Shown here: piece by piece, positions 2 to 24,165 of the stretch
Numbering within the stretch: position 1 is the stretch's first letter
Layout of the letters: each line of letters starts with the position of its first letter
Position numbers and translations under genes: made by a program
NCBI GenBank assembly: GCA_903930165.1
Contig: CAIYXO010000575.1
Location: 1-28,145 of the forward strand
Length of the DNA stretch: 28,145 nucleotides
Source of the DNA: an uncultured Verrucomicrobiota bacterium
GTDB taxonomy: Bacteria > Verrucomicrobiota > Verrucomicrobiia > Limisphaerales > UBA9464
Reading direction: 5' to 3'
The notes under the pieces: generated by a model
What the model was told of the DNA's origin: nothing
Database searches by the model: none
The model's input: the letters and a program-made list of their open reading frames with translations, nothing else

Positions 2-1063
2 GACGACGCGGGTGAGCAGGAGCGCGAGCCGGGCCTCGTTGAGCATGTGGCCCGAGTCGTTCGAAGCCGAGCCGTCGACCCCGAGGCTGACGGGGCTGCC
101 GCCGCCGCGGAGGTCGTTGACGCGGCAGACGCCGGAACCGAGCCGCATGTTGGAGCACGGGCAGTGGGCGATGCCGGTGCGGGTCCGGGTGAGATGCCCG
201 ACCTCGCGGTCGTTGAAGTGGATGCCGTGGGCGAGCCAGACGTCGTCGCCTTCCCAGCCGAGCTTCGACATGTAGGCGAACGGCCGCGCGCCGAGCATCT
301 TCAGGGCGTCGGCGTTCTCGGGGATAGTCTCGCCGCAGTGGGTGTGGAGGCGGACCTTGAGCGAACGGGCGAGGCGGGCGGTCTCGCGGTAGAGGTCGCC
401 GGTGCAGCCGAACACGGTGCAGGGCGCGAAGGCGACGTGGGACATGGCGCCGGGACCGGTCCGGTGGTGCGCGTCGTACAGGCGCTGGCAGTCGGCGAGG
501 ATCGTGTCGGTGTCCTGGCAGGACCATTCCGGCATGATGTCGCTCGGGATGTTCACCGATCCGCGGCAGCCGACGTAGCGGATCCCGAGCGCCGCCGCCG
601 CCTCGAACCCGGCGTCGAGCATCCTGTCGGAGCCGTCGTTGGGGAAGAGGTAGTGGTGGTCGCTGGTCATCGTGCACCCGCTGAGCAGGAGCTCGGCGCA
701 GGCGACCTGGGTGGCGACGTGGAGGTCGTCGGGCGTGAAGTTCCGCCAGAGCGGCATGTGGCCGGCGAGCCAGGGCAGCAGCGGGAGGTTCGAGACCGGG
801 CCGAACGCGCGGGCCAGGTTCTGGAACATGTGGTGGTGGGTGTTGACCATGCCCGGCAGCACGATGCCGCCGCGGGCGTCCACCACCTCGGCCTCCGCAC
901 CCGAACCCCGAACCCGCGGCGCGGCGCCGGTCCCGACCGAGCGGATGATGCCGTCCTCCGCCAGCAGCCACGCCCCGCGCAGGACGCGTCGGTCCGCGTC
1001 CATCGTCACCAGGTGGCCGATGTTGCGGACCAGCGTCTTCGTCTTGGGTGCGGCTTGGGTCAT
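2..1063 (-). CDS. Metal-dependent amidohydrolase, cog0402 8-oxoguanine/isoxanthopterin deaminase / AtzB-like subfamily; 3' end runs off the window
   Basis: Hand translation from ATG at 1063 gives MTQAAPKTKTLVRNIGHLVTMDADRR...PGMVNTHHHMFQ...SDHHYLFP...HTHCGE...WLAHG...HCPCSNMRLGSG...GVDGSASND. HxH, HxxE and GxDG metal/catalytic motifs are present, with no stop before the edge. SD AAGGAGG lies 10 nt upstream. Not listed in the ORF track. Confidence 0.9.
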   Translation of the reverse strand, partial: MTQAAPKTKTLVRNIGHLVTMDADRRVLRGAWLLAEDGIIRSVGTGAAPRVRGSGAEAEVVDARGGIVLPGMVNTHHHMFQNLARAFGPVSNLPLLPWLAGHMPLWRNFTPDDLHVATQVACAELLLSGCTMTSDHHYLFPNDGSDRMLDAGFEAAAALGIRYVGCRGSVNIPSDIMPEWSCQDTDTILADCQRLYDAHHRTGPGAMSHVAFAPCTVFGCTGDLYRETARLARSLKVRLHTHCGETIPENADALKMLGARPFAYMSKLGWEGDDVWLAHGIHFNDREVGHLTRTRTGIAHCPCSNMRLGSGVCRVNDLRGGGSPVSLGVDGSASNDSGHMLNEARLALLLTRVV

Positions 1064-1073
1064 GTCGGAGGTT

Positions 1074-1080
1074 CCTCCTT
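1074..1080 (-). promoter_or_regulatory. Shine-Dalgarno site (AAGGAGG) of the amidohydrolase gene
   Basis: Plus strand cctcctt at 1074-1080 reads AAGGAGG on the minus strand, 10 nt before ATG 1063. Confidence 0.75.
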
Positions 1081-1111
1081 CCCGGCTGACGGGCAACCGG
1101 GGAGCGGAACG

Positions 1112-2260
1112 CTAGGGAGGTCCGGCGCGTTCGACCGGAGCGTTGGTCCAGTAAGGCGTGGGAAGTGCCGGATCCAGCTTCAGGGCGGCCGGCGAGAAGG
1201 CGTCGGTGACGACCGAGGCGACCGGGACGGGCGAGCGGACGACGCCGAGGTCGAGCAGGATGCGGCCGAGTTCCTCCCAGCGGCGGAGATCGACCGCCCC
1301 CATCGATTCGCCGCGGGAGGCGTCACCCTCCACGAGGCGCAGCTCCCGCATCTTCACGTAGCTGAAGCGCATGCCGCCCGCGTCCATGGTGGGCGAGATC
1401 GACCGGATGTGGGCGTGGATGGGTTCGGGGTCCTTGAAGTAGGACTGCCAGCCGAGGTAGGCGCCGCGGCTGAACTTCGCGACGAGTTCCGGGTGCTTCT
1501 CGACGAGCTGGCGGTTGGCGATGATCACGCGGTAGGGGTCGAAGCCGGACTCGCTGATCTGGAGAACCCGCGAGGCGACGCCCTCGCGCAGGGCGTAGTA
1601 GGGTTCGCTGGTCGGGTAGGCCTGCATGATCCAGTCGGGGTCCTTCACGAAGTTGGCCACGTTGCCCGTGATCGGACGCACCCGGATCTTCTTCAGCGCG
1701 TATTTCTTCTGGAGGAACTGGAGCCAGGTGCCGCCGATCTGCATGGCGAGGTCGCGGTCCTCGAGGTCGGCGAAGGAACGGACCGGGGAATCCGCGCGGA
1801 CCATCACTCCCTGCGGGTCGTGCTGGAAATAGGAGTTCACCGCGACGATGGGCAGGCCCCGGTCGACGGCCACGAAGACGGCGTCGCCGCGGACGATGCC
1901 GAGGCCGTAGGGATCCAGCGCCACGCGCTTCTCGATCTCGGAGTTGGGGCCGCCGATGAGGACGTTCACCTTCACGCCCTCGGCATCCCAGATCCCGCGT
2001 TGCTGGGCCGCGTAGTAGCCGCCGTGCTCGGGTTCGGGAACCCAGTCGTGGATGAAGTTGAGCGGCTCGGACCGGGCCTTGGCGTCCACGGAACCGGCGG
2101 CGCCCGAAGGGTTCTGGCCTCCGCATCCGGCGAGGAGCCAGGCCACCAGCATCGTGGCGACGACCACCATCAGCCTGGCGGTCCAGCGGAGGGCGGTGGC
2201 GAGCTGGGCCTGGGCCGCGGAGGAATCCTGGAGATCGGAGCCTGTCTCGGGGCGGTTCAT
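1112..2260 (-). CDS. ABC transporter substrate-binding lipoprotein, NMT1/THI5 (SsuA-like) family
   Basis: 382-aa ORF with a hydrophobic signal ending in lipobox LLAG-C, then DWVPEPEHGGYYAAQQRG, GLGIVRGD, QHDPQGVMV and GFDPYRVII segments typical of NMT1/THI5 binding proteins. The start codon is uncertain. Confidence 0.85.
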   Translation of the reverse strand: MNRPETGSDLQDSSAAQAQLATALRWTARLMVVVATMLVAWLLAGCGGQNPSGAAGSVDAKARSEPLNFIHDWVPEPEHGGYYAAQQRGIWDAEGVKVNVLIGGPNSEIEKRVALDPYGLGIVRGDAVFVAVDRGLPIVAVNSYFQHDPQGVMVRADSPVRSFADLEDRDLAMQIGGTWLQFLQKKYALKKIRVRPITGNVANFVKDPDWIMQAYPTSEPYYALREGVASRVLQISESGFDPYRVIIANRQLVEKHPELVAKFSRGAYLGWQSYFKDPEPIHAHIRSISPTMDAGGMRFSYVKMRELRLVEGDASRGESMGAVDLRRWEELGRILLDLGVVRSPVPVASVVTDAFSPAALKLDPALPTPYWTNAPVERAGPP

Positions 2261-2421
2261 GGAGTCAGACTTGGCCGGATGCGATCAGATGGGACTCACG
2301 CCAAGGCGCAAAGACGCCGACTGGGGGATTGGAAACCGCTGATTCTCCTCCGTTGCAGCGCGACTTGGCGGGTTGGCGTGCGGGTCCTGTCAGCATGGAT
2401 CGGGATCGGTTCGGGTGCAGG

Positions 2422-2463
2422 AAAAGGGGGCTTCCGACCGCACACACAACAGCCGGAAGCCCC
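2422..2463 (-). terminator. Intrinsic terminator-like hairpin downstream of the TonB-dependent receptor
   Basis: Minus strand reads GGGGCTTCCG-17 nt-CGGAAGCCCC-C-TTTT: a 10-bp perfect stem, extendable with G-U pairs, starting 20 nt after the receptor stop. The U-tract is short (4). Confidence 0.6.
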
Positions 2464-2483
2464 ACGCACTGGAGGAGGATGGA

Positions 2484-4913
2484 TCAGAACTTGTAACGGA
2501 CCTGGCCGCTGATGCGGAAGGGCTGCTCGGGGAAGATCACGTCGTTGCCCGCGAAACCGGGATCGATCGAGGTCCAGTTCCGCTCGTCGGTGATGTTGAA
2601 GAAGTTGATCTGAACGTCCCACTTCGGCTGCTTGTAGAAGACGAAGGCGTTGATGACGTACTGGGCCGGGATGATCAGCGTGCCGTTCTGGTTCTGCCAC
2701 TGTTCGCCGGTGACCTGCGGGCCGACGCTGGCGCCGAAGCCGCTGTCGAACTGGTAGGTCAGGTAGGCGTTGAAGAGGATCCGCGGAACCGAGGCGGCGC
2801 GGGTCTTGCCGAGCACCGGGGCATAGGAGTAGTTCGGGCTGCCGCGGCCGGTGCCGGACTGGCCGTCCACGATGAACCCGACCGGGAAGCCATCGAGGTA
2901 GTTGCCGGTCTGCTGGCCGGGGCGGGAGTCGGCGGTGGCGTCCTGGTAGGTGAAGTTGGCGCTCGCGTTGAAGTTGCGGTCCGGCTGGTAGAACGCCTCG
3001 AGCTCGAGGCCCTTGGTCTCGATGCCGATCGGGTCGCCGACCAGCTGCGGGGCCACGCGGGTCTGGTTGAAGAGGGAGGCGCCGACGAAGACCTTGTTGT
3101 CGAGCAGGCTCGCCTTGGATCCGACCTCGATCAGCTCGCTCTCGGTGGAGAGGGAGCGCTCGAGTCCGGCCTTGGTGTTGCTGGTGCCGTCCACGCCGCC
3201 GAAGTTCGCGCTGCCCTGGATCGCGTTGACCAGGTTGTAGGTCGCGTAGCTCGTCAGCGTCGGCATCCACTTGTAGATGCCGCTGATGAAGACCGAGGTG
3301 TTGAAGACGTCGGTCGAGACGTTGTAGCGGTTGCCGACGGGGAACCCGACGGCCTCCGGGCTGCGGGCGGAGGCGCTGATGTAGTCCCCGCGGCCGCCGG
3401 CGATGATGGAGAACTTGTCATGCAGCTTCATGTCCCACTGCGTGAAGAAGGCTCCCTGGCGGATCTCGGAGTTCTGGTCGCCGTTGCCGAAGAAGTAGTT
3501 CGAGCCGTAGCCGGGGGCGCCGGGGACGAGGACCGTGCTGCCGCCGTAGGTGGTGATGGCCGGGTTGACGGGCAACCGGAAGGAGGTGGCCGGCTGGGTG
3601 ACGTCGTAGAGGAAGAACGGCTCGATCGAGAAGTCCTGGTAGGAGACGAGCGAGGCGTAGCGGAGGTCGACGCCGCTGATGGTCTTGATGGGCAGCTCGA
3701 AGCTCCCGAGCTTGGGCGCGATCTCGTAGTGGAGCTCCGTGCGGTCGTTGACCATCCAGTTCTCCGGCACGTATTCGGTGTAGCCGTAGCCGGAGGCCTT
3801 GCGCGACTCCTGGGTCTCGCCGTAGGCCCGGTTGACCAGCTTGCCGAAGTCGTTGATCAGGTAGGTCGAGATCAGCTGCGAGGAGAACTTCTTCGCGGCG
3901 GCGCTGTCGCCGGGGGCGTTGATCGTCTGCCAAGGGTAGACGTGGACGCGGGAGGCGAGGTTGGTGTTGAGCAGCGCGAAGTTCGCGTTGAGGCCGAAGG
4001 CGCCGATGGAGGTCAGCGGATCGCCGAACGCGTTGTTCGGAAGCACCGGGCCCGCGATGTAGAGCCAGTCGTCGATCAGCTCCTGGGTGACGCGGTTGAT
4101 GCCGATGACCTCGTTGAACCGGGAGGTGTAGAACTGCGCGTTCCAGTCGAAGGTGAGCTTCTCGTTCGGGCGGAACGTCAGGGCGCCGAAGATGTCCTGG
4201 GTGTTGTCCTTGACGTTCTGGTAGTAGCCCTCGGCCTCGCGTCCGAGGTAGCTGACGCGCCAGGCGAGCTTCTCGTTGATCGGCCCGCCGTAGTCCAGGA
4301 TCCACTCCGGGTTGAAGTAGCTCTGTCCGCCCGGGACGTAGCTGCCCCAGCGGGTGATGAGCTCGCCGTGGTTGGCGTCGAAGTAGGGGAGCTTGGTGAC
4401 GAAGTTGACGTAGCCGCCCGGGCCGTTGCCCTGGGGTCCGTAGACCGCGGAGCCCGGGCCCTTGACGATGTCCATCGCCTCGACGCCGTTGAAGCTCGCG
4501 AGCACCGAGTTGCGGCTGTAGATGGTCCGCTGGCCGTTCTGGTAGATCTCCGAGAGGTCGCCGCGGATGACGGGGACGTTCGCGAGTCCGTAGCGGGACG
4601 GCGTGTAGACGCCGGGCGAGTACTGGTTGAAGTCCGTCGCGCGGGAGATGGCGCGGGCCTCCATCTGGGCCTTCGTCACCAGGGACACCGACCGCGGGGT
4701 CTCGAGGATGCTCCGGTCGTCGCCCATCACCGACTCCACGGGGCGGGCGGTCGGAAGGACGGTCTCCTCCAAGGGCAGGCCCTCGACAACCACCTTGTCG
4801 AGCACGTTGGTCGATCCGGGAGTGGCCTCCTGCGCCTGCGCGGCCAGGAACGGGACGAGGGCGAAGGTGGCGACGCCACCGATACGGCCCGGAAGCCAGA
4901 AACGAGGTTTCAT
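2484..4913 (-). CDS. TonB-dependent outer-membrane receptor
   Basis: 809 aa with signal peptide (…FLAAQA/QE), TonB box LDKVVVEG, plug motifs (ETPRSVSLV, IRG, MDIVKGPGSAVYG, GGYVNFVTK) and a C-terminal aromatic-ending beta strand GQVRYKF. Confidence 0.95.
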   Translation of the reverse strand: MKPRFWLPGRIGGVATFALVPFLAAQAQEATPGSTNVLDKVVVEGLPLEETVLPTARPVESVMGDDRSILETPRSVSLVTKAQMEARAISRATDFNQYSPGVYTPSRYGLANVPVIRGDLSEIYQNGQRTIYSRNSVLASFNGVEAMDIVKGPGSAVYGPQGNGPGGYVNFVTKLPYFDANHGELITRWGSYVPGGQSYFNPEWILDYGGPINEKLAWRVSYLGREAEGYYQNVKDNTQDIFGALTFRPNEKLTFDWNAQFYTSRFNEVIGINRVTQELIDDWLYIAGPVLPNNAFGDPLTSIGAFGLNANFALLNTNLASRVHVYPWQTINAPGDSAAAKKFSSQLISTYLINDFGKLVNRAYGETQESRKASGYGYTEYVPENWMVNDRTELHYEIAPKLGSFELPIKTISGVDLRYASLVSYQDFSIEPFFLYDVTQPATSFRLPVNPAITTYGGSTVLVPGAPGYGSNYFFGNGDQNSEIRQGAFFTQWDMKLHDKFSIIAGGRGDYISASARSPEAVGFPVGNRYNVSTDVFNTSVFISGIYKWMPTLTSYATYNLVNAIQGSANFGGVDGTSNTKAGLERSLSTESELIEVGSKASLLDNKVFVGASLFNQTRVAPQLVGDPIGIETKGLELEAFYQPDRNFNASANFTYQDATADSRPGQQTGNYLDGFPVGFIVDGQSGTGRGSPNYSYAPVLGKTRAASVPRILFNAYLTYQFDSGFGASVGPQVTGEQWQNQNGTLIIPAQYVINAFVFYKQPKWDVQINFFNITDERNWTSIDPGFAGNDVIFPEQPFRISGQVRYKF

Positions 4914-4978
4914 CAGTTCGGACGGATTAGTTGGGTTGTTTGAGTGCGACGGGGGTCAGGCGCCGCAATGCCCCCAAG

Positions 4979-4994
4979 GCATCCGGCGTGCCAA
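4979..4994 (-). promoter_or_regulatory. Candidate sigma54 (-24/-12) promoter for the TonB-dependent receptor
   Basis: Minus strand TTGGCACGCCGGATGC matches consensus YTGGCACG-N4-TTGC: GG and GC are exactly 10 nt apart, with one mismatch (ATGC). It implies a start site near 4967 and a ~55-nt leader before ATG 4913. Confidence 0.6.
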
Positions 4995-5018
4995 TCATCC
5001 CCCCGCTTCTTCGGCATT

Positions 5019-5169
5019 TCCAGCATCCGCCTGAAGCCCCATTCTCCCCGACCCCGACCCTCCGGGTCCCCAATCGGGCGTCGGTTGCCCATTTCCTTGG
5101 GCTTCCGCGCAATTTCGGGGGAGTGGCCGGAGACGGGTCGACCAGGCCTCGATGAGGCGGATTGCTGGA
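5019..5169. repeat. ~150-bp imperfect palindrome (rod-like fold) in the divergent intergenic region
   Basis: Nested stems share an axis near 5094: 5019-5032/5155-5169 (14 bp, 1-nt bulge), 5055-5065/5127-5140 (11 bp, 3-nt bulge), 5068-5071/5117-5120, 5078-5084/5105-5110, 5087-5091/5098-5102; loop TTTCCT. Confidence 0.65.
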
Positions 5170-5394
5170 TAGTCGGCGGATGCAGGCAGGAGATTCAGCG
5201 ACGGGGTTGGGCGGGGGCGTCGGACGTCCGCCGGGGGCGTGTGGCGGTATTTGGCCATGCTGGGCAGGCGTGTGTCCCGCGGGGGTTGGAGGTGCTGATC
5301 CAGAAGCGACAGGGCGTCGGGGGTCCACGGGCAATCGGAACGTGATTGGGCGGATGACGAGGCCGTGGAACATCCTCTGCTTTCCGGTTTGAGG

Positions 5395-5952
5395 ATGGCC
5401 CGTACCCCGAACCGCCCAAACCCCGAGGACGAGGTGTTCATGAAGTCGCTGGCCGACTTCGCACACCGCGAGCTGGCGACGGACCGGCGTTCGCCGTTCG
5501 CGTCCGACGTGGTGGAGACCTCGACCGGGAAGCTCGTGATGCGTCGGCTGAACGGCGTGCGGATCGAAAACGACCCTTCGAGCCACGCCGAGGTGCGGGT
5601 GATGCGGGCCGCCTGCAAGAAGCTCAAGACCACCAGCCTCAGGGGCCACACGCTGTACACCACCTGCGAGCCGTGTCCGATGTGCATGGCCATGGCCCTG
5701 TGGGCCGGGATCGACCGGGTCGTGTTCGGATCGACCATCGCGGACGCCTCGCGCCACTGCGCGCAGATCTACGTCCCCGCCAAGACGCTGCAGCGGAAGT
5801 CCGACATGGACTGCGAGGTCGTGGGCCCGGTGCTCCGCAAGGAGTGCGTCGCCCTGTTCGAGGATCCGCGGATGCTTTCCGCGATGGCGCTGTGGAAGAA
5901 GTCCCGTCGCGGACCCAAGGCCAAGCCCGCGCGCCGCGCTTCCGGATCCTGA
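5395..5952 (+). CDS. Zinc-dependent nucleoside/nucleobase deaminase, cytidine-deaminase fold, guanine deaminase (B. subtilis GuaD type)-like
   Basis: Motifs DPSSHAE and LYTTCEPCPMC...WAGIDRVVFG. ATG at 5395 follows GAGG; the track start at 5365 is less likely. Confidence 0.85.
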   Translation: MARTPNRPNPEDEVFMKSLADFAHRELATDRRSPFASDVVETSTGKLVMRRLNGVRIENDPSSHAEVRVMRAACKKLKTTSLRGHTLYTTCEPCPMCMAMALWAGIDRVVFGSTIADASRHCAQIYVPAKTLQRKSDMDCEVVGPVLRKECVALFEDPRMLSAMALWKKSRRGPKAKPARRASGS

Positions 5953-5975
5953 AACCCCGTCCGCCCCTTTCGTCC

Positions 5976-7361
5976 ATGACCAACGCCGACCTCGTCGCAC
6001 TCGCGGAGCTCCTGCCCGCCGAACGGATCGTCACCGCCCCCACGCAGCTCGAGACCCTGAGCCGCGACTTCTACTGGTACTCTCCCATCCTGAAACGGGA
6101 CCTCTCGGACCGCCGGGCCGACGTGGTCGTGCAGGCGAGGGACGTGGAGGACGTGAAGGCGATCATCCGCTTCGCCTACACCCGCCGGGTCCCTCTCACC
6201 CTGCGCGGAGCCGGCACGGGCAATTACGGGCAATGCATCCCGACCCATGGCGGCATCGTGCTGGACCTGGCGGCGTTGGACCGGATCCACGGCATCTCGC
6301 CCGACGGCGTCGCGGTCTGCGACCCGGCGGCCCGCCTGGCCTCGATCGAGAACGCCGCGCGCCAGGTCGGCTGGGAGCTGCGCTGCTATCCGAGCACGTT
6401 CGTGAAGGCCGGCGTCGCCGGCTTCTGCGCGGGCGGTTCCGGCGGCATCGGCAGCATCACCTGGGGCGGCCTGCGGGAGAACGGCACCGTCCACGCCCTC
6501 ACCATCCTCACCATGGAGGCCGAGCCCCGAGAGATCCGTCTCGCGGGACCGGACATCTTCAAGATCCTCCACGCCTGGGGCACCAACGGGGTGATCGTGC
6601 AGGTGGAGCTGCGCCTGGCGCCGCGGACCAACTGGGCCCAGCTGGCGGTGGCGCATCCGGAGTTCTCCGCCTCCTTCGACTTCGTCGAGGCCATCGCCCG
6701 CAACGACTCCTTCAAGAAGCGCCTCACCTCCTGTTTCGAATGGCCGTTGCCGTCCCACTTCACCCCGCTGCAGAAGTGGGTTCCGAAGGGCCGTGCGCTG
6801 GCCTTCTTCGAGGTGGCGGACGACCAGCTCCAACGCCTGGCCGACGCCGCGAAGAACGGGGGCGGCGAGGTCTGCTTCGTGGCCCCCTACACGGAGCCGC
6901 GCCGCGGGACGCTCCTGAGCGACTACACCTGGAACCACACGACGTTGTGGGCCCTGAAGGGGGATCCATCCCTGACCTATCTCCAGTGCGGCTTCTCCGC
7001 CACCGAGGCCCGGAGCCAGATGCGGCGGCTCAAGGCGCGATTCGGCGACGACTTCCTGATGCACATCGAGTTCGTCCGGTGGGACAACGTGGTCACCCCG
7101 GGCTCCATCCCGGTCATCCGCTACAGCACCGACGAGCGTCTCCGGGAGATGATCGCCTTCTGCGAGAGCCTGGGCGTGAGCGTCGCCAACCCGCACGTGA
7201 ACTTCCTCGAGGGTTCGGGGCGTTGGCGGCCGGACGACGCCAAGCTGGTGGCCAAGCAGGAGTACGATCCCCGCGGCCTCTTGAACCCGGGCAAGATGCG
7301 CGGGTTCGCGGCCAGCCTCGAGGGAGTCACCGGAAACCCGCCGCTCGAGGCTGCCGCCTGA
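5976..7361 (+). CDS. FAD-binding oxidoreductase (GlcD/FAD-linked oxidase family)
   Basis: From ATG 5976, 461 aa: ADVVVQARDVEDV, PLTLRGAGTGNYGQ FAD-binding motif, GGSGGIGS, and C-terminal YDPRGLLNPGKM. The track extension from 5673 overlaps the deaminase and looks non-coding. Confidence 0.9.
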   Translation: MTNADLVALAELLPAERIVTAPTQLETLSRDFYWYSPILKRDLSDRRADVVVQARDVEDVKAIIRFAYTRRVPLTLRGAGTGNYGQCIPTHGGIVLDLAALDRIHGISPDGVAVCDPAARLASIENAARQVGWELRCYPSTFVKAGVAGFCAGGSGGIGSITWGGLRENGTVHALTILTMEAEPREIRLAGPDIFKILHAWGTNGVIVQVELRLAPRTNWAQLAVAHPEFSASFDFVEAIARNDSFKKRLTSCFEWPLPSHFTPLQKWVPKGRALAFFEVADDQLQRLADAAKNGGGEVCFVAPYTEPRRGTLLSDYTWNHTTLWALKGDPSLTYLQCGFSATEARSQMRRLKARFGDDFLMHIEFVRWDNVVTPGSIPVIRYSTDERLREMIAFCESLGVSVANPHVNFLEGSGRWRPDDAKLVAKQEYDPRGLLNPGKMRGFAASLEGVTGNPPLEAAA

Positions 7362-7386
7362 CGAGCCCCTCACACCCACCGAAACC

Positions 7387-8175
7387 GTGAAGACCTGGAT
7401 CCCACCGGAACGATTCCTCCCCTACCTGACCTGGAAGCAGGTGGACGCCCTGCCGCGGGACCGCACGCTGCTGGTGCTGCCGACGGCGGCGATCGAGCAG
7501 CACGGCCACCACCTGCCGCTCGCGACCGACACGCTGCTCAACAACCTGCTCCTGGGCCATGCGTTGAGAAAGGTGCCGGCGGACCTGCCGATCTACGCCT
7601 TGGCGCCGGTGTGCTACGGCAAGAGCAACGAGCACGTGGGTTTCCCGGGGACGCTGAGCGTGGGGCGGGACACTTTCGCCGCGGTGCTGAGGGACCTCGC
7701 GCGCAGCCTCGTGGCGGCGGGCTTCAAGCGGCTGGTCTTCTTCAACAGCCACGGCGGGAACCATTCCCTGCTCGACGTGATGGCACGGGACCTCCGGGAC
7801 GAGTTCGGGATGCGGACGTTCTGCCTCTTCGGAGGAGGCGCGGCGAGCGGACTCGACCCGCAGGAGGCCGCGTATGGCTTCCACGCCGGCGAGGTCGAGA
7901 CGTCGCTGCTGCTCCATGCCACGCCCGAGCTCGTCCACACGGACCGGTACACCGTGAACTACATCGCCCGTCTCGGCGACCCGGGCGTGCTCAAGCCCGA
8001 GTTCGCCTCGGCCACCTTCTCCTGGCTCACCCGGGACATCGCGCCGAGCGGCGTGATGGGCGACCCCACGCCGTCCTCCGCGGAAAAGGGCGAACGTTGG
8101 TGCGACGAGATGAGCTCCCGCGTCGCCGCGGCGCTGCAGGAGATGTATGCCTTCCGCGAGATCCTCGAACGCTGA
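7387..8175 (+). CDS. Creatininase-family amidohydrolase (creatininase/ArfB/MftE family)
   Basis: 262 aa, GTG start, with family metal motifs IEQHGHHLPLATD, SNEHVGFPGTLS, NSHGGN, HAGEVETS and GVMGDP. Confidence 0.9.
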   Translation: MKTWIPPERFLPYLTWKQVDALPRDRTLLVLPTAAIEQHGHHLPLATDTLLNNLLLGHALRKVPADLPIYALAPVCYGKSNEHVGFPGTLSVGRDTFAAVLRDLARSLVAAGFKRLVFFNSHGGNHSLLDVMARDLRDEFGMRTFCLFGGGAASGLDPQEAAYGFHAGEVETSLLLHATPELVHTDRYTVNYIARLGDPGVLKPEFASATFSWLTRDIAPSGVMGDPTPSSAEKGERWCDEMSSRVAAALQEMYAFREILER

Positions 8176-8236
8176 CCGGCGGCCTCGGCGCCCGCCGACC
8201 GTCCGACGCCGAACGCAGTCCGCGTCCGGAACGTGC

Positions 8237-9943
8237 GTGGACCTCGGCGACGGCGTGACGGTGGAACGCGGCGTCCGCCTGCGCCTGCCCGACGGCACCG
8301 AGCTGGTCTCCGACCACTACCGGCCCGCCGCCGGCGGACCGCTGCCGACCCTGCTCGTGCGCCAGCCCTATGGACGCGCGGTGGCCACGACGGTGGTGTA
8401 CGCCCAGCCCAACTGGTTCGCGGCCCGGGGATACAACGTCGTGATCCAGGACGTCCGCGGACGCGGCGACAGCACGGGCCGCTTCGTCCCGTTCGTCCAC
8501 GAGGGCGCCGACGGGGCGGCCACGATCGACTGGCTGGCGGGACGTCCCGAGTGCGACGGGCGCGTGGGCATGTACGGCTTCAGCTATCAGGGGATGACCC
8601 AGCTGCTGGCGGCCGCGGAGCAGCCGGAGGCCCTGCGATGCATCTCCCCGGCGCAGACCGCGGGCGACCTCCACGACGGCTGGTTCTACCACCATGGGGC
8701 CTTCCGGCTCGCCTCGGGAATGAGTTGGGCCGCGCAGATGCTGAAGGCGGACGCCCGACGCCTGCGGCTACGCAAGGCCAGCGACGCCCTCGAGTGCGCG
8801 TGGACGAACCTCGGGGCGTTGTATGCGTCCACGCCCTACGGCCGGGCGCCGGTCCTCACGGCGCGCGGACTTCCCCGATACGCCCGCGACTGGATGGAGC
8901 ACCGCGAACCGGGTCCGTTCTGGAGGCGGCAGGACATCTCCGGACGCGAGTCCAGCATCCGGGTGCCGGCGCTGCACGTCTGGGGCTGGTTCGACACCTA
9001 CCTGCATGGAAGCGAACTGCTCTACCGCGCGCTCTGTGAAGGGGCGGATCCGGCGGTGCGCGGAAGCCAATACCTGGTCGCTGGACCCTGGACGCACATC
9101 CCCTGGGGCCGACACGCGGGAGAGGCGGACCACGGCGCGGCCGCGGAGCTGGACACGGACGCGATCCTGCTGCGGTGGTTCAACCACTGGCTGAAGGGCT
9201 CGGGCGAGTTCGATGCCGAGCCCCGGGTCCGGTCGTTCGTCCTCGGCGAGAACCGCTGGCAGTCGGCCGACCACTGGCCCTTCGACGGGAAGGGGTGCAC
9301 GGAGTCGACCCTGTTCCTCGGTTCCGGAGGACGGGCGAACTCCACCCGCGGCGACGGGGTGCTGGCCGCCACGCCGTCGCCGGAAGGGACGCCGCGCGAC
9401 CAGTTCGTGTACGAGCCCGAGGTGCCGGTCGGCGGACCGGGTCCGGGCGGTGCGTCGGGCTGCTTCAACCAGTCCCGGGCCGACGCGATGAACAACGTGC
9501 TCGTCTACACGGGACCGGTGCTCGACCGGCCGGTCCATGTGCGTGGATGTCCACGCGTGCGCCTCTTCGCCACCAGCCGTCTCGGACACGCGGACCTCTT
9601 CGCGAAGCTGGTCCGGGTGCGGACGGACGGACGTTCCGAGAACGTGACCCACGGGATCGCGCGCAGCGACCGCCTCTTCGGCGGAAAGGCGGGTGTGTTC
9701 CGGGCGGACACGGTGATGGAGTGGGCGTTCCCGCTGGAGCCCACGGACTGCGTGTTCGGGCCGGGCGAACGCATCCGCCTGACCGTCGCCGGCAGCGCCT
9801 TTCCGCTCTACTACCGCAATCCCGGCTCCGAAGTCCCGCCGCACCGGGCCACTTCCTGGGACTGGCTCCAGAACCAGCAGCAGATCGTCCATGACGCGGT
9901 CCACCCCTCGGCCCTTTCGATGCCCACCGTGAGCGGACCATGA
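8237..9943 (+). CDS. CocE/NonD-family alpha/beta serine hydrolase
   Basis: Motifs RQPYG, QDVRGRGDS.G, nucleophile GMYGFSYQG, GWFD, GPWTH and a C-terminal PepX-like beta domain (VLVYT...RIRLTVAGSAFP). In-frame GTG at 8237 chosen; ATG 8147 is an alternative that overlaps the upstream gene. Confidence 0.9.
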   Translation: MDLGDGVTVERGVRLRLPDGTELVSDHYRPAAGGPLPTLLVRQPYGRAVATTVVYAQPNWFAARGYNVVIQDVRGRGDSTGRFVPFVHEGADGAATIDWLAGRPECDGRVGMYGFSYQGMTQLLAAAEQPEALRCISPAQTAGDLHDGWFYHHGAFRLASGMSWAAQMLKADARRLRLRKASDALECAWTNLGALYASTPYGRAPVLTARGLPRYARDWMEHREPGPFWRRQDISGRESSIRVPALHVWGWFDTYLHGSELLYRALCEGADPAVRGSQYLVAGPWTHIPWGRHAGEADHGAAAELDTDAILLRWFNHWLKGSGEFDAEPRVRSFVLGENRWQSADHWPFDGKGCTESTLFLGSGGRANSTRGDGVLAATPSPEGTPRDQFVYEPEVPVGGPGPGGASGCFNQSRADAMNNVLVYTGPVLDRPVHVRGCPRVRLFATSRLGHADLFAKLVRVRTDGRSENVTHGIARSDRLFGGKAGVFRADTVMEWAFPLEPTDCVFGPGERIRLTVAGSAFPLYYRNPGSEVPPHRATSWDWLQNQQQIVHDAVHPSALSMPTVSGP

Positions 9944-10725
9944 AGAACACCGACACCGGACAACCGCCGTTCATCACGCTCGGGGACGTGACCAAGCGCT
10001 GGTCCAACGGCGTGACCGTGCTCGACGGCATCCGGCTCGACGCGGAACGGGGCGACTTCATTTCCCTGATCGGGCCGAGCGGGTGCGGCAAGTCGACGCT
10101 GCTGCGGCTGCTGTCCGGGCTCACGCCGATCAGCGACGGCACGGTGACCATCGACGGCATGGCGCCGGTCGCCGCGCGGGAGATCATGTCGTTCATCTTC
10201 CAGGATGCGACGCTCCTGCCTTGGCGGACGGTTCAGGGCAACGTGGAGCTGGGTCTTGAACTGGCCGGCAACACCACCGCCGCGGCGCGGCGCGAGGCCT
10301 GCGGGGGGCTGCTTCGGCTGGTGGGGCTTTCGGACGTGGCCGGGCACTATCCGCGGCAGCTCAGCGGCGGCATGAAGATGCGCGTCTCGATCGCGCGGGC
10401 GCTGGCGACACGTCCGAAGCTGCTGCTGATGGACGAGCCCTTCGGCGCGCTCGACGAGATGACCCGGGACTTCCTCAACGAGGAGGTGCTGCGGCTGCGC
10501 GAGGTGGACCGGTTCACGACTTTCTTCGTCACCCACAGCGTCGCGGAGGCGGTGTTCCTCTCGACGCGGATCCTGGTGATGAGCGCCAAGCCCGGGCGCG
10601 TCGCCCGGGAGATCGCCGTCCCGTTCCCGTTTCCCCGCACCTCGGCGCTGCGGAGCGCCCCGGAGTTTCTGGAACGGGTGGGTGAGGTCAGCGCCGCGTT
10701 GCGCACCGTGAAGGGAGCCCATTGA
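9940..10725 (+). CDS. ABC transporter ATP-binding protein, NitT/TauT family
   Basis: Walker A GPSGCGKST, Q-loop FQD, signature LSGGMKMR, Walker B LLMDEPF, and VTHSVAEA. ATGA overlap with the CocE stop codon. Confidence 0.95.
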   Translation: MKNTDTGQPPFITLGDVTKRWSNGVTVLDGIRLDAERGDFISLIGPSGCGKSTLLRLLSGLTPISDGTVTIDGMAPVAAREIMSFIFQDATLLPWRTVQGNVELGLELAGNTTAAARREACGGLLRLVGLSDVAGHYPRQLSGGMKMRVSIARALATRPKLLLMDEPFGALDEMTRDFLNEEVLRLREVDRFTTFFVTHSVAEAVFLSTRILVMSAKPGRVAREIAVPFPFPRTSALRSAPEFLERVGEVSAALRTVKGAH

Positions 10726-10744
10726 AAACCCGAAGCAGGACCCC

Positions 10745-11536
10745 ATGAGGAAGATGTTCAAGGAGGCCTTGTGGCCCGCCGCGGTGTTCCTGGCCGTGCT
10801 CGCGCTCTGGCAGGGGGCCTGCACCGTGTTCAGGATACCGCCCTACGTGCTGCCGTCGCCCCCACAGGTCTTCGCGACGGTGGTGGAACGCCACGCGAGC
10901 CTCGTCGCCGCCTTCCGCATCACCGCCGTCGAGGCCGTCGGCGGCTACCTCATGAGCATCGTCGTCGGAGTCCTCGTCGCGCTCGTCTTCGCCCAGAGCC
11001 CGGTGGTGCGACGCTCCCTGTTCCCCTACACCATCCTGCTCCAGACCGTGCCCATCGTGGCCGTCGCGCCGCTCATCCTGATGTGGTTCAAGTCGGGCGC
11101 CTCGAGCGTGATGCTGGTGGCGTTCATCATCTGCGTCTTCCCGATCATCGCCAACACGACCCAGGGGCTGATCAGCGTGCCGCGCAACCTCGTGGACCTC
11201 TTCGCCATGGCGAACGCCTCCCGCGCCAGCCAACTGCTGAAGCTCCGGCTTCCCCACGCCCTGCCGTCGTTGTTCGTCGGACTGCGCATCTCGGCCGGGC
11301 TCTCGGTCATCGGGGCGATCACCGGCGAGCTGTTCGCCAGCTCCAACGCGGTCGGCGAGGGCGGCCTCGGCTACTCGATCACCTACGCCAACAGCCAGCT
11401 CCAGACCGACTACCTCTTCGCGCTGGTCATCACCACCAGCGTGATGGGCTGCCTCTTCTTCTTCACCGTCACCGGGCTCGAATGGCTCTGCCTCCGCCAT
11501 TGGCACGAGTCCGCGATGAAGGTGGATGCGGACTGA
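10745..11536 (+). CDS. ABC transporter permease, NitT/TauT family
   Basis: 263 aa with about six hydrophobic segments and an EAA-like loop DLFAMANASRASQLLKLRLPHALP. Confidence 0.92.
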   Translation: MRKMFKEALWPAAVFLAVLALWQGACTVFRIPPYVLPSPPQVFATVVERHASLVAAFRITAVEAVGGYLMSIVVGVLVALVFAQSPVVRRSLFPYTILLQTVPIVAVAPLILMWFKSGASSVMLVAFIICVFPIIANTTQGLISVPRNLVDLFAMANASRASQLLKLRLPHALPSLFVGLRISAGLSVIGAITGELFASSNAVGEGGLGYSITYANSQLQTDYLFALVITTSVMGCLFFFTVTGLEWLCLRHWHESAMKVDAD

Positions 11537-11540
11537 ACCC

Positions 11541-12554
11541 ATGAATCTCCCACGCCTCCGCCTCCGCACGGCCGCGCTGCTGCCGTCGCTGTTGCTCGCC
11601 CTGGCCGCCTCCCTCCGTGGCCTCGGCGCGCAGCCGGCTTCCAAGGTCGAACCGGCTTCCGCACCGGTGCCGGTCACCTTCCAGCTCGACTGGAAACCCA
11701 ACGCCCAGTTCGCGGGCATCCTCCTCGCCAAGGAGCGCGGATGGTATCGCGAGGCCGGAATCGACCTCTCTGTGAGACCCATCCCGCCGGACGAATCCGT
11801 CGTCCGGAGCGTGGTCACCAACCGCCTCTGGCTCGGCTGCGCCGAGAGCGGCGTCCTCCTGCCGGCCCGCGCCCGCGGTGAACCGGTCCGGGTCGTCGGC
11901 ACCATGCTCCAGGGATCCCCGATGTGCCTGATCAGCCTCAGCCCAGCCCGGCTCCGGAAGCCGGCGGACCTGCGCGGACGACGCATCGGCGTCCATGCGG
12001 ACGGCAACGACGCGATCGACTTCGTGCTGCGTCCCGCCGGATTGGACCGGACCACGGTACGGGTGGAGGTGATGCCCTACGACACCACGCCGCTGTTGGA
12101 CGGCCGCTTCGACGCCGTGCAGGGCTATTCCGTGGACGAGGCGATCGAGCTGCGTCTGGCCGGCCATCCCATCGACCTGATGTTCTTCCACGACCACGGC
12201 TACGCGGCCTATGCGCAGGTCTACTTCACCTCCGAGGCGATGCTGGCCGAGCGGCCGGACCTGGTGCGGCGGTTCCTCGAGGTGTCCGCGCGCGGATGGA
12301 AGGCGGCCGCCCGCGAGCGGGATGCAGCGGTCTCGGTCATCCTGGCCGGTGGGATCCGCGACACGGACCGGGTACACCAGCGGAAGGCGCTCGACGCGCT
12401 GGTTCCGCTCCTGACCCGCGAAGGCGGCCGCAACAGCCATGGGCGCATGCGGAGGGCGACCTGGGAGAAGGCTGTGGACGAGTTCAATTCGCTCCCGACG
12501 GCGGCGCGGAAGATCACGGTGGAAGAGCTGGTAAGCTTCGACTTCCAGCGCTGA
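11541..12554 (+). CDS. ABC transporter substrate-binding protein, NMT1/THI5 (ThiY-like) family
   Basis: Sec-type signal, then FQLDWKPNAQFAGILLAKERGWY, QGSPMCLIS and DAVQGYSVDE segments. ATG 11541 lies 4 nt after the permease stop; the track start is 11526. Confidence 0.88.
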   Translation: MNLPRLRLRTAALLPSLLLALAASLRGLGAQPASKVEPASAPVPVTFQLDWKPNAQFAGILLAKERGWYREAGIDLSVRPIPPDESVVRSVVTNRLWLGCAESGVLLPARARGEPVRVVGTMLQGSPMCLISLSPARLRKPADLRGRRIGVHADGNDAIDFVLRPAGLDRTTVRVEVMPYDTTPLLDGRFDAVQGYSVDEAIELRLAGHPIDLMFFHDHGYAAYAQVYFTSEAMLAERPDLVRRFLEVSARGWKAAARERDAAVSVILAGGIRDTDRVHQRKALDALVPLLTREGGRNSHGRMRRATWEKAVDEFNSLPTAARKITVEELVSFDFQR

Positions 12555-12715
12555 GCCGCAATGCCGCCTGGGGGGAGGAAACCGCTGGTGAGCCGCGGCG
12601 ACCTACGGGGAATCGGCCATCAAGGATCAGGAATCACGAAAATCCGGACGGCTTTGCGCATTTGCGTGAAGTCGGTCTTCGCTCCAACGGGATCGCAACG
12701 GCCAAGGACGACGGT

Positions 12716-13937
12716 TCAGGGCCGACGGGCGCAGGACTCGGTGAAGTCCACCGCCCGCGCCGCGACGGAGCGCCAGTCCAGTTCCCGGGCCACCCGCGCG
12801 GACGCCGCGAGTCCCCACGAGCGGCGGGTTCCCCGGGGGAGGTCCAGCGTTTGCAGCAGCACGCGGGCGAAGTCGGCGCCGTCCCACCCGGAGAACCGCA
12901 GGGCCGGTTCGCCGGCGAAGTAGCGACCCAGGTTCTCGAGCGGCGTGCTGACGCAGGGGATGCCGCATCCGAGGTATTCCACCGCCTTCGCGACGAACGC
13001 GCAGTGGACCCCCTGCGAGGCCTCGTAGGGCACGATCCCGACGGTCGCCGACCGGAGTTCCCGGGCCACCTCGGCATACGGGACGAATCCCGTGGTCTCC
13101 AGCCGCACGCCGGGGGGCCGCCAACCGGACATCCGCGACGAAACGCGCCAGCGCCGGCGTCTCCCGTCCCACGAACCGGAAACGCACCTCGGGTCGGGCG
13201 GCGTGCACACCCAACACCGCCTGGCGGCCGATGGGACCCAGATGATGCTGGTCGAAGGAGCCGTGCATGACGACCACAGGCGCGGGATCGACGTCGGGGG
13301 AATCCTCCTCGGCCGGGGTGAAGAGGCGGGAATCGTACCCGTACTGGATCGCGCACACCTTGGACGCCGGATAGCCGGTGGCGACGAACCTCTCGGCGAG
13401 CGGCGTGGAGACGGTCATCACGCCTTCCGCCTGGAGCCTCCGCGGCATGGACATCTCAAACCGGTTCAACGCCGGCACGAAACCGGTCCGCGTGAAGATC
13501 GCGGGCCACGTCTCCATGAAGCCGGTGAGGTAGTCGAGGAAGTTGAGCACGATCGGGACGCCCCAGCGCCTGCGCAGGCTGCCGGCGGCGACGCCGGAGA
13601 TCGTGTGCTGGGCGAGGACCACGTCAAAGCGGCCCGAGCCGGCGGAGGTGCGTTCCAGTCCGCGGCGGACCCGCTCGGCGTGGCGTGTCAGCGCGGCCGG
13701 GTAGAGGAGGTACTTGAGGTTGCGCAGGCGCGTGTAGCGTCCCATCTCCCAGAGGGTGAACGGGTGGACCACCACGCCGAACCGGCGGGCGACCGCGGCG
13801 GAGTCGGCGAAGTCGGGACACAGGAGGTGGACCTCGTGTCCGCGACGGACGAACTCCTCCACGAGGTAGGGCGCCTCGGCGGAGCCGCCCCCGCTGGGCG
13901 GATGGAAGGGCTCATGGGTCAGGAACGCGACGCGCAT
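12716..13937 (-). pseudogene. Glycosyltransferase family 4 (GT-B fold), frameshifted at a C6 run (13112-13117); either a true pseudogene or a sequence error
   Basis: The N-domain (MRVAFLTHEPFHPPSGGGS...RRGHEVHLL) reads to ...VRLAAP. The C-domain (GVRLETTGFVPYAEV...AKAVEYLGCGIPCVST...LDWRSVA) is in another frame ending at 12716. Deleting one C gives one 406-aa ORF. Confidence 0.85.
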
Positions 13938-13980: not shown

Positions 13981-15123
13981 TCAGGCCTGTTCCCGCAGGA
14001 AGCGGGTGAGGATGGCCGACGCCTTCTCGAGGGACTTCACCTCCACCCATTCGTCCTCGGTGTGGGCCTGGGCGATGTCCCCGGGACCGAACACGACCGC
14101 GGGCGTCCCCGCCGCGGAAAGCGGGGCGGCGTCGGTGAAGTAGTGGACGCCGATGGTCTTCCGGCGGCCGGCGGCGCGGGTCAGCGCGGCCACCAGCGGC
14201 AGTTCCGGGTCGGTGTCGAGCGGTTCGCACGGGGCGGTCCGGAGGTTGTCGAAGCCCGCCTTCAGGCGGTGCCGACGCAGCAGGGCCGTGATCTCCCGAC
14301 GGACACCGGCCTCGGTCTCGCCCGGCAGGGTGCGCCGGTCGATGGCGATGACGCAGTCCGCCGGCACGATGTTGGGCTGCCGTCCGCCGGCGATGCGCCC
14401 GACGTTGACCGTGGGGCGGCCGAGCCTGGGATGCGGCTTCCGCGAGGCGAGTTCCTTGGCGTAGTCCTCCTCGAGGGCGAGGACGATGCGGGCCATGTCG
14501 GCGACGGCGTTGCGCCCGAGATGGGGCGTCGCTCCGTGGGCCGCCCGGCCCACGGAACGGAGCTGCAGCCAGACGTCCCCCTTGTGGGCCGTGACCACCT
14601 CGAGTCCGGTCGGCTCGCCGACGATCGCGAGGTCCGCCCGTCCGCCCGTGCGCGCGAAATGGCGTGAGCCGAGCTGCATGTTCTCCTCGTCGGCGAGGCC
14701 GATGAAGACGATCTCGGTGTCGCGCGGCCTCAGGCCGGAGGCGGCGAGGTCCAGGAGCGCCTGGAAGTAGGCGGCCACGGAGCCCTTGGTGTCGCAGGCA
14801 CCACGTCCGTGGACACGGCCTCCGGCGACACGCGGACGAAGCTGCCCGGACAGGGCGGGCTCGCCGACGGTGTCGAGGTGGGGCGCGAGGAAGAGGCGGC
14901 GGCGTGGACGGCCGGCGGGGACCATCCGCACGACGAGGTTCTCGCGGCCCGGGGCGACCGTCTGCCGTTCAACCTCCAGGCCCGCCTTGGTGGCGAGGTC
15001 GGCGAGGTGTGCGGCCACCCGGTGTTCGCCCGTTAGTTCCGGATCCGGGAGGAAGGCGGGATTGACGCTCGGCAGGGCGATGAGGTCGCAGAGCAGACGG
15101 ACAATGGGAGCCGGTGCAGGCAC
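13981..15123 (-). CDS. M20 family metallohydrolase, ArgE/DapE-like
   Basis: Motifs LIALPSVNP, APHLDTV, GRGACDTKG, ADEE, GEPT, HKG and GPGDIAQAHTEDEWV. GTG at 15123 chosen; ATG 15228 is the track start. Confidence 0.88.
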   Translation of the reverse strand: MPAPAPIVRLLCDLIALPSVNPAFLPDPELTGEHRVAAHLADLATKAGLEVERQTVAPGRENLVVRMVPAGRPRRRLFLAPHLDTVGEPALSGQLRPRVAGGRVHGRGACDTKGSVAAYFQALLDLAASGLRPRDTEIVFIGLADEENMQLGSRHFARTGGRADLAIVGEPTGLEVVTAHKGDVWLQLRSVGRAAHGATPHLGRNAVADMARIVLALEEDYAKELASRKPHPRLGRPTVNVGRIAGGRQPNIVPADCVIAIDRRTLPGETEAGVRREITALLRRHRLKAGFDNLRTAPCEPLDTDPELPLVAALTRAAGRRKTIGVHYFTDAAPLSAAGTPAVVFGPGDIAQAHTEDEWVEVKSLEKASAILTRFLREQA

Positions 15124-15234
15124 GATGGCGGAACCATACACCGGCCCATGGACAATTCGAATCCGGAAACGGGAAATGCTCCGGGAACCGACCGCGGGAA
15201 CGGAGGGAACACGCCGGAAACCCGACATCCACCA

Positions 15235-23042: not shown

Positions 23043-23159
23043 GGAGCGAGGATCCCCGCACCGGCCCGTACGTGCCAGCGCAGAAAGGTCGGAGACCCGG
23101 AACGGGGCGACGCCAGTCGGACGTTGATGCGATGGCGGAGGCCGGATCATCCTGCCTCC

Positions 23160-24116: not shown

Positions 24117-24131
24117 ACAGCGGGCTCCGTG

Positions 24132-24165
24132 GGAAACCGCGGCGGGCACGCTGCCCTGCGGTTCC
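24132..24165. terminator. GC-rich hairpin between the convergent epimerase and dnaA genes, possible bidirectional terminator
   Basis: AACCGC/GCGGTT outer stem encloses GGGCA-CGC-TGCCC. There is no U-tract on either side. Confidence 0.3.

Follow-up and report, generated by a model that had tools for sequence, protein, structure and literature searches.

Which compound is imported and broken down by a Verrucomicrobial gene cluster that joins a TonB-dependent receptor and an ATP-binding cassette (ABC) importer to five catabolic-type enzymes? The cluster, ten contiguous genes in two divergent arms, lies at one end of contig CAIYXO010000575.1 (C575), part of a metagenome-assembled genome (MAG) of an uncultured Verrucomicrobiota bacterium (979 contigs, 67.7% complete); the window analysed here is the complete contig, 28,145 nucleotides long with a G+C content of ~69%. 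Our analysis indicates that the locus is probably a sigma54-controlled uptake and catabolism system for amino-oxo fused-pyrimidine heterocycles of the pterin/lumazine class, the guanine/8-oxoguanine class, or both. Four leads, namely a flavin adenine dinucleotide (FAD) enzyme, a cog0402 amidohydrolase, a CDA-fold deaminase and a riboswitch in Klebsiella, argue for fused amino-oxo pyrimidine rings, without separating pterins from oxidised purines. The gene identities, conserved synteny, promoter footprint and homologies set out below are direct observations. An initial annotation, made from the sequence alone, had named the ten gene families; all were confirmed by assignment with Pfam and NCBIfam, and motif checks agree (Table 1). 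Solved relatives were taken from PDB matches.

The FAD enzyme of the plus arm matches PDB 6V42 over its full length (phmmer, residues 12-442; E 1.5e-99, 337 bits). An AlphaFold model of the enzyme (pLDDT 87.7) superposes on 6V42 in Foldseek with TM 0.89 and a root-mean-square deviation of 2.4 Å, the next PDB match reaching TM 0.74 at 18% identity. Judged by these comparisons, the protein is an ortholog-level relative of 6V42/6V43, its single close solved relative; the 6V42 entry is titled 'Crystal structure of the flavin oxygenase with cofactor bound involved in folate catabolism'. A fold search of Swiss-Prot returned only generic D-lactate, glycolate and 2-hydroxyglutarate dehydrogenases (TM ~0.7), and the source protein names of 120 homologs were uninformative. 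In all, homologs of the FAD enzyme number more than 7000.

Of the minus-arm amidohydrolase, which has the HxH motif NTHHH, the window encodes the N-terminal 365 aa and contig C797 the remaining ~111 aa (L002 167-502). Even truncated, it scores 404 bits with the 8-oxoguanine deaminase equivalog NF006055, and it aligns end to end with 3HPA (373 bits) and 7WW2 ('8-oxoguanine deaminase', 334 bits), against 212 bits for isoxanthopterin deaminase (2PAJ) and ~203 bits for TrzN among the other solved cog0402 enzymes. These scores place it clearly nearer the solved 8-oxoguanine deaminases than isoxanthopterin deaminase. Its setting differs from that of the solved enzymes: here the gene sits between two binding-protein genes behind a TonB receptor.

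The CDA-fold enzyme that opens the plus arm carries its zinc motifs at residues 49 (HAE) and 76 (CEPC) of the 170-aa form, as expected from the H-A-E and P-C-x-x-C motifs of the CDA superfamily. Its best PDB match is the guanine deaminase of B. subtilis (1WKQ, 59 bits), followed by TadA and guanosine deaminase. An assignment as TadA itself was rejected (NF008113 score 50.6, cut-off 150). A separate, second CDA-fold gene is found on contig C970.

The fourth lead comes from Klebsiella pneumoniae (L087), where an operon encoding an NMT1-type substrate-binding protein (SBP), a cog0402 amidohydrolase and a 2-oxoglutarate oxygenase follows a xanthine riboswitch (RF03054, 63 bits). This operon is ~5 kb from a reduced form of the module (below); its amidohydrolase is 38% identical to that of the window and its SBP 47% identical to the SBP of the module. 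The riboswitch class (NMT1 motif) binds xanthine and urate and turns genes off; its operons encode NMT1/THI5-like binding proteins, TauA-type ABC transporters, PRK12393/8-hydroxyguanine-deaminase-like amidohydrolases and tadA-like CDA deaminases, and neither lumazine nor pterin is named anywhere in the main text of the study (Yu and Breaker 2020, PMC7373994). These are the gene types of the window cluster, which differs in having no riboswitch or dioxygenase, in its sigma54-type promoters, and in its FAD, creatininase-family and CocE genes, which are not reported in those operons. An Rfam scan at gathering thresholds gave no match in the window and no riboswitch in the Rhizobium, Nitratireductor, Ruegeria and Comamonadaceae loci.

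The grouping of these genes is conserved. With the FAD protein as query and one genome per species, 569 loci were confirmed; in ~60 of the best 80, at identities down to ~50%, the order CDA-FAD-creatininase-CocE-ATPase-permease is colinear. Because this synteny is kept in other genomes, the cluster is more than a chance assembly, and the co-occurrence expected by the initial annotation is borne out across three phyla. The core is carried by Verrucomicrobiota, many Acidobacteriota (Terracidiphilus gabretensis, Granulicella sp. S190 and Tunturiibacter lichenicola being cultured examples), Bryobacteraceae and a Vulcanimicrobiota MAG. The receptor and amidohydrolase arm is limited to Verrucomicrobiota, where 13 of the 14 loci that extend far enough upstream have it; receptor orthologs (59-99% identity) keep the same position in these 13, and the fourteenth (L023) retains the amidohydrolase and SBP1 elsewhere in the locus. 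Fifteen Acidobacterial loci have an outer-membrane barrel of their own (CarboxypepD_reg). Distribution is patchy: among 300 evenly sampled Verrucomicrobiota species only six have a strong homolog of the FAD enzyme. No conserved neighbours were found around the cyanobacterial homologs.

Relatives on long contigs show a cluster larger than that of the window. Their minus side reads DUF2165 <- SBP3 <- amidohydrolase <- SBP1 <- receptor [<- amidase], their plus side CDA -> FAD -> creatininase -> CocE -> ATPase -> permease [-> DUF3891] -> SBP2 [-> FMN_red-like]. Unsupervised clustering of all open reading frames (ORFs) in the loci added DUF3891 (39 loci), an amidase-signature enzyme (35), an FmdA-like amidase (25) and DUF2165 (25) to the conserved members. 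In the MAG itself, positions 1-165 of C797 overlap window positions 3-167 with 99% identity over 165 bases, an unjoined assembly break within the amidohydrolase gene; beyond it, C797 extends the minus arm and encodes the C-terminus of the amidohydrolase, SBP3 (the third binding protein of NMT1 type) and a DUF2165 membrane protein. The FmdA-like amidase is encoded beside DUF3891 on C144 and the amidase-signature enzyme on C378, in an assembly too fragmented to place either relative to the cluster. No regulator gene lies within the cluster, and none was found among the conserved neighbours as a sigma54 activator. The description of the cluster as self-contained was accordingly too strong, because accessory genes that relatives keep inside it lie elsewhere here and no regulator is present.

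A reduced module is found in Proteobacteria. A tblastn search of annotated plasmids returned 141 records with the FAD enzyme, most of them from Rhizobium, and the annotated neighbourhoods of eight carriers were read: Rhizobium johnstonii 3841 (pRL12), Agrobacterium, Nitratireductor, Ruegeria, Pseudosulfitobacter, a Comamonadaceae strain, Pantoea and Klebsiella. In all eight the FAD enzyme is accompanied by a creatininase-family protein, a 'cytosine deaminase' of amidohydrolase fold and components of an ABC importer, and RidA is annotated in each. Six have a standard NMT1-type importer (binding protein, ATPase and permease); Nitratireductor is without an annotated binding protein, and Ruegeria has only a large one of different size, with no ATPase or permease annotated. 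Frequent extras are an NAD(P)H oxidoreductase, present also in several Verrucomicrobial relatives, and a LysR or TetR regulator. The 6V42 protein belongs to this module, since its sequence and the Rhizobium protein have signature stretches in common.

The window cluster and the proteobacterial module, 6V42 included, are alike in a homologous FAD enzyme, a creatininase-family enzyme, a ring deaminase and an NMT1-type ABC importer. They differ in the deaminase, which in Proteobacteria has the CodA-like amidohydrolase fold (NCBIfam 'cytosine deaminase' PRK07583) in place of the CDA fold. Two unrelated folds thus fill the same slot, which we consider the strongest internal argument that removal of a ring amine is obligatory. 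In addition, the window cluster has a CocE/NonD hydrolase (absent from the proteobacterial module), a TonB receptor and the 8-oxoguanine-deaminase-like arm. It lacks RidA and the LysR or TetR regulator, having sigma54-type promoters instead, and its relatives add DUF3891, the amidase and the FmdA-like enzyme.

A three-subunit molybdenum oxidoreductase resembling PaoABC adjoins the module in R. johnstonii pRL12 (L083, 1893-5689) and in Agrobacterium (L091, 17205-21009), accompanied by an XdhC maturation gene only in the Rhizobium locus. The subunit architecture of this enzyme is that of the lumazine dehydrogenase of Cupriavidus LA-1.

The two arms are separated by a 526-bp spacer holding two sigma54-type elements, one ahead of each arm. 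Transcription is predicted to start near 4966 on the minus strand and near 5391 on the plus strand. On the plus side TGG-N9-TGC is present in all 22 Verrucomicrobial sequences, 73-81 nt before the deaminase start in 20 of them; on the minus side it occurs in 14 sequences (the window and 13 Verrucomicrobial loci), 80-120 nt before the receptor start (209 nt in one). The chance expectation, estimated from base composition, is ~0.08 element per 220-nt sequence; within the window alone, the six sigma54-type matches are not above the 6.8 expected. Both arms have a GG-N10-GC element at a conserved distance before the first gene, and in an alignment with relatives of 73-75% identity both elements remain identical while the spacer around them has diverged. 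The seven Acidobacterial and Vulcanimicrobiota loci that were checked have no such element. The gene rpoN is present in four of four relatives with the cluster, and the MAG itself encodes at least 12 enhancer-binding-protein ATPase domains. Position-conserved sites on both arms support, but do not prove, the co-regulation that had been supposed, here through sigma54-type promoters; a tie to nitrogen limitation is something we only infer. Among RNA data only Logan contigs (one metatranscriptome, two doubtful 'RNA' runs) touch both arms, and they demonstrate neither transcription nor co-regulation.

Two further blocks of the spacer are conserved with the 73-75%-identical relatives, at ~5290-5310 (ATTTGGCCATGCTGGGCAG) and ~5225-5235 (in the relatives, CATGAATCGATTTCA); they are candidate activator or integration host factor sites. 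Of the two possible deaminase starts, ATG 5395 (GATGGCCC) is kept in relatives and ATG 5440 has a GAGG-type ribosome site. The former is only ~14 nt past the -12 element, so the deaminase mRNA may be nearly leaderless if it is the true start.

Table 1. Genes and promoter elements of the divergent cluster, in window coordinates
Feature	Position	Strand	Basis or remark
cog0402 amidohydrolase, 8-oxoguanine-deaminase-like	2-1096	-	Pfam Amidohydro_1; gene cut by contig end
NMT1/THI5-type substrate-binding lipoprotein SBP1	1112-2260	-	Pfam NMT1 1.4e-28; lipobox LLAGC
TonB-dependent outer-membrane receptor	2484-4913	-	Plug and TonB_dep_Rec barrel
Sigma54-type -24/-12 element, minus arm	4978-4993	-	TGGCAC-N5-ATGC, ahead of receptor
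Sigma54-type -24/-12 element, plus arm	5366-5381	+	TGGAAC-N5-CTGC, ahead of deaminase
CDA-fold zinc deaminase	5395 or 5440 (ATG) to 5952	+	HAE and CEPC zinc motifs
FAD_binding_4 enzyme, VAO/PCMH fold	5976-7361	+	Pfam FAD_binding_4; raw ORF start 5673 not the true start
Creatininase-family (PF02633) metal amidohydrolase	7387-8175	+	Pfam 229 bits
CocE/NonD-family serine hydrolase	8147 (or GTG 8237, possibly the true start) to 9943	+	TIGR00976; Peptidase_S15 and PepX_C
ABC transporter ATPase, taurine/nitrate/sulfonate type	9940-10725	+	Pfam/NCBIfam; ATGA overlap with CocE stop
ABC transporter permease	10745-11536	+	BPD_transp_1; SaoP/NtrB/SsuC-like
NMT1/THI5-type substrate-binding protein SBP2, divergent subfamily	11526-12554	+	Pfam NMT1 1.7e-42

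From these observations a scheme can be drawn up in which substrate, reactions and their sequence are all inferred. The TonB-dependent receptor would carry the compound over the outer membrane, and the three NMT1-type binding proteins would pass it to the single ABC permease/ATPase pair. In the cytoplasm a pair of unrelated deaminases of nucleobase type, the CDA-fold enzyme and the 8-oxoguanine-deaminase-like amidohydrolase, are predicted to strip the exocyclic amino group as ammonia, leaving a 2,4-dioxo ring of the lumazine, xanthine or urate type, which the 6V42-like FAD enzyme might oxidise or oxygenate. The creatininase-family enzyme could then open a cyclic amide, and the CocE/NonD hydrolase, a member of its family by score (TIGR00976 383 bits, cut-off 66.3; 232 bits to cocaine esterase in the PDB) with a nucleophile elbow GFSYQG at residues 144-149, may split linear amides or ureides and free more nitrogen. 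The amidase-signature enzyme, the FmdA-like amidase and DUF3891, found in relatives and elsewhere in this genome, are probably involved too. The initial annotation had suggested oxidised purines or pterin and folate fragments; that class fits the two best leads, the amidohydrolase and the FAD enzyme. Two of its arguments find no support: the creatininase-family protein, likened there to ArfB as a route to ring-opened guanine (FapyG), scores best with MftE, below the cut-off, and does not have ArfB among its matches; and a riboflavin-binding protein, invoked through RibY, is absent from the PDB matches of the binding proteins. Its analogy with ThiY reflects a real match, though a distant one.

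Several results weigh against the proposed assignment. The full-length ortholog of the amidohydrolase (95% identical; L003:3715-5121) scores 512.1 bits with NF006055, under the cut-off of 532. Literature searches found no paper behind 6V42/6V43, the folate link being that of the depositors' title only, and no folate-specific gene is conserved in the locus. An M20 peptidase at 13981-15228 (-), considered as a carboxypeptidase G2 (CPG2), proved ArgE/DapE-like, scoring 204 bits with TIGR01892 (below the cut-off) and only 48 bits to CPG2; being confined to the 97%-identical relatives, it is placed outside the cluster. The creatininase-family protein misses every equivalog cut-off (MftE 143 against 172, creatininase TIGR04448 98.9 against 235, and IolN), and CocE/NonD enzymes are best known for ester or peptide hydrolysis. 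SBP2 has the thiamine-pyrimidine binder ThiY (3IX1, 57 bits) as its nearest PDB match. On the regulatory side, the case for the sigma54 sites consists of sequence matches only, a search of the 67.7%-complete MAG did not find rpoN, and the riboswitch link concerns one genus among the eight proteobacterial loci.

Known pathways resemble parts of the scheme. Folate breakdown in Variovorax relies on carboxypeptidase G together with a pterin deaminase of the cog0402 type (PMC9513972). For pterin and lumazine a single bacterial pathway has been published, that of cluster I in Cupriavidus sp. LA-1; it comprises a molybdenum lumazine dehydrogenase, an amidase-signature isomerase of two subunits, a prenylated-flavin (UbiD-type) decarboxylase and purine/pyrimidine permeases (Doi et al. 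2025, PMC12391406). Like the proposed route, it deaminates pterin to lumazine, oxidises the ring and then rearranges or hydrolyses it towards xanthine, and an amidase-signature protein occurs in many relatives of the window. However, the LA-1 dehydrogenase, isomerase and decarboxylase are not among the genes of the window cluster or its conserved neighbours, a further point to be set against the proposed assignment, and the LA-1 pathway has no VAO-type flavoenzyme, creatininase-family enzyme or CocE. No paper describing a pathway with the present gene set was found in literature searches, in agreement with the initial annotation.

How the dioxo ring is opened is a more tentative matter. We suggest, as a possibility of low likelihood, that the plus arm is an undescribed ring-opening route for fused 2,4-dioxopyrimidines, begun by the VAO-fold flavin oxygenase and continued by the creatininase-family cyclic amidase and serine/amidase-type hydrolases; it would replace the canonical urate pathway in these Verrucomicrobia and draw several nitrogen atoms from TonB-imported pterins and oxidised purines. 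Neither 2-oxo-4-hydroxy-4-carboxy-5-ureidoimidazoline (OHCU) decarboxylase nor 5-hydroxyisourate (HIU) hydrolase was found in five Verrucomicrobial carriers of an FAD homolog, including a complete 7.9-Mb chromosome and a complete 6.1-Mb genome, and neither of these nor uricase was found in the MAG (67.7% complete). It is by these three genes that the canonical urate pathway is represented here. If the amidohydrolase makes urate, the fact that the canonical genes were not found calls for another urate route, for which the plus arm is a candidate. This absence is a new observation, as are the sigma54 footprint, the extension onto C797, the placing of accessory genes on C144 and C378, and the patchiness within the phylum.

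The locus could also be read in terms of purines alone: guanine and oxidised guanine would be scavenged, the CDA enzyme making xanthine and the amidohydrolase urate, with the FAD, creatininase-family and CocE enzymes opening the ring and pterins playing no part. Such a system, which we think rather unlikely though credible, would fit the guanine deaminase match of the CDA enzyme, the affinity of the amidohydrolase to 8-oxoguanine deaminases and the xanthine/urate riboswitch over the homologous Klebsiella arm (PMC7373994), as well as the ureidoglycolate lyase and hydantoinase that adjoin the module in Nitratireductor; it would also account for the need of an alternative where OHCU decarboxylase and HIU hydrolase were not found. 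It is harder to reconcile with the depositors' title of the FAD homolog, which says folate and not purine, and with three Acidobacteria and one Opitutaceae carrier that keep the module despite having both urate genes far from it in the genome. HIU and OHCU, moreover, also decay non-enzymatically, hence the absence of both genes is weak evidence, and shut-off by xanthine or urate suits producers of these compounds and not consumers.

Less probable still is a monocyclic pyrimidine, either of the cytosine/isocytosine/uracil type, degraded by oxidative opening, or hydroxymethylpyrimidine (HMP) or formylaminomethylpyrimidine (FAMP), imported for salvage. Both binding proteins of the window match ThiY, which binds FAMP, and THI5 in the PDB, and the proteobacterial deaminase belongs to the NCBIfam 'cytosine deaminase' model. 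Flavoenzyme, NAD(P)H oxidoreductase, RidA and amidohydrolases together recall the logic of RutA, RutF, RutC and RutB. The Rut system of E. coli (RutA-G) is a nitrogen-scavenging operon under sigma54 and NtrC in which a flavoenzyme opens a 2,4-dioxopyrimidine ring; amidohydrolases, a RidA-family protein and a flavin/NAD(P)H reductase deal with what it yields, a set resembling the make-up of the proteobacterial module. The enzymes are nevertheless not homologous: RutA has a luciferase fold and not the VAO fold, there is no deaminase, creatininase-family enzyme or CocE, and the permease is not an NMT1-type ABC transporter. The minus-arm amidohydrolase, for its part, is of the 8-oxoguanine and not the cytosine type. 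The ThiY matches are distant (25.5 bits for SBP1); SBP1 is 40% identical to SBP3 of C797 and 30% to the riboswitch-controlled Klebsiella SBP, and SBP2 is only 21-29% identical to the other SBPs. Salvage of the thiamine pyrimidine was rejected, as the window has no thiamine pyrophosphate or HMP-pyrophosphate riboswitch and the cluster no thiamine genes.

We regard as highly improbable a cyclic amide or peptide-like substrate (creatinine, hydantoins, diketopiperazines or a peptidyl-nucleoside), in which the creatininase-family and S15/CocE proteins would be the key enzymes and the deaminases accessory. The creatininase-family fold, the best NCBIfam match to the peptidase MftE, and the X-Pro dipeptidyl peptidases and amino-acid ester hydrolases among CocE/NonD relatives would suit it. 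But every version of the module keeps a deaminase, even through a change of fold, and CocE is not a core step, because it is missing from the proteobacterial module. Creatinine itself was rejected on the creatininase model score and for want of companion genes: creatinase, sarcosine oxidase and N-methylhydantoinase are not in the conserved set.

There is equally little to be said for two functionally unrelated arms, a receptor/binding-protein/deaminase operon beside a separate catabolic one: Acidobacteria and Proteobacteria do keep the plus-arm core without the 8-oxoguanine-deaminase-like gene, and the metatranscriptome contigs are no proof of co-expression, but the divergent layout persists down to ~60% identity in Verrucomicrobia, L023 included in keeping its two minus-arm genes, the minus arm has binding proteins but no permease or ATPase, the only ones being those of the plus arm, the promoter type is common to the two arms, and Klebsiella shows the same pairing.

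If the locus does serve uptake and catabolism of fused amino-oxo pyrimidines, it would supply a missing piece of the nitrogen cycle, the recovery of nitrogen from pterins, folate fragments and damaged purines by abundant freshwater and soil bacteria (Verrucomicrobiota, Acidobacteriota and rhizobia). It would likewise give functions to groups now defined by family only (the VAO-fold flavin oxygenase, branches of the creatininase and CocE/NonD families, DUF3891 and DUF2165) and a biochemical context to the proteobacterial xanthine-riboswitch operons. The module occurs in cultured, genetically tractable strains (R. johnstonii 3841, Agrobacterium, Klebsiella and Tunturiibacter), in which the question is directly testable.

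Loci 97% identical to the window come from Verrucomicrobiales MAGs of ponds and lakes, and about ten metagenome studies of lakes, ponds and fresh water also contain DNA of the window. Beyond the cluster, the window encodes a putative GT4 glycosyltransferase (12627-13937, -; the Pfam match is limited to the N-terminal GT4 domain) and, in tandem, two very large FG-GAP/ASPIC-UnbV repeat proteins (15682-19572, -; 19356-24149, -). An ORF at 19254-24116 (+) matches GDP-mannose-dehydratase/epimerase only in its last ~300 aa; the real epimerase gene is probably near 23170-24116 (+), where the overlapping minus-strand ORF is probably over-called. A dnaA gene with all three DnaA domains is located at 24174-25568 (-), which would place the cluster ~12 kb from the likely replication origin region.

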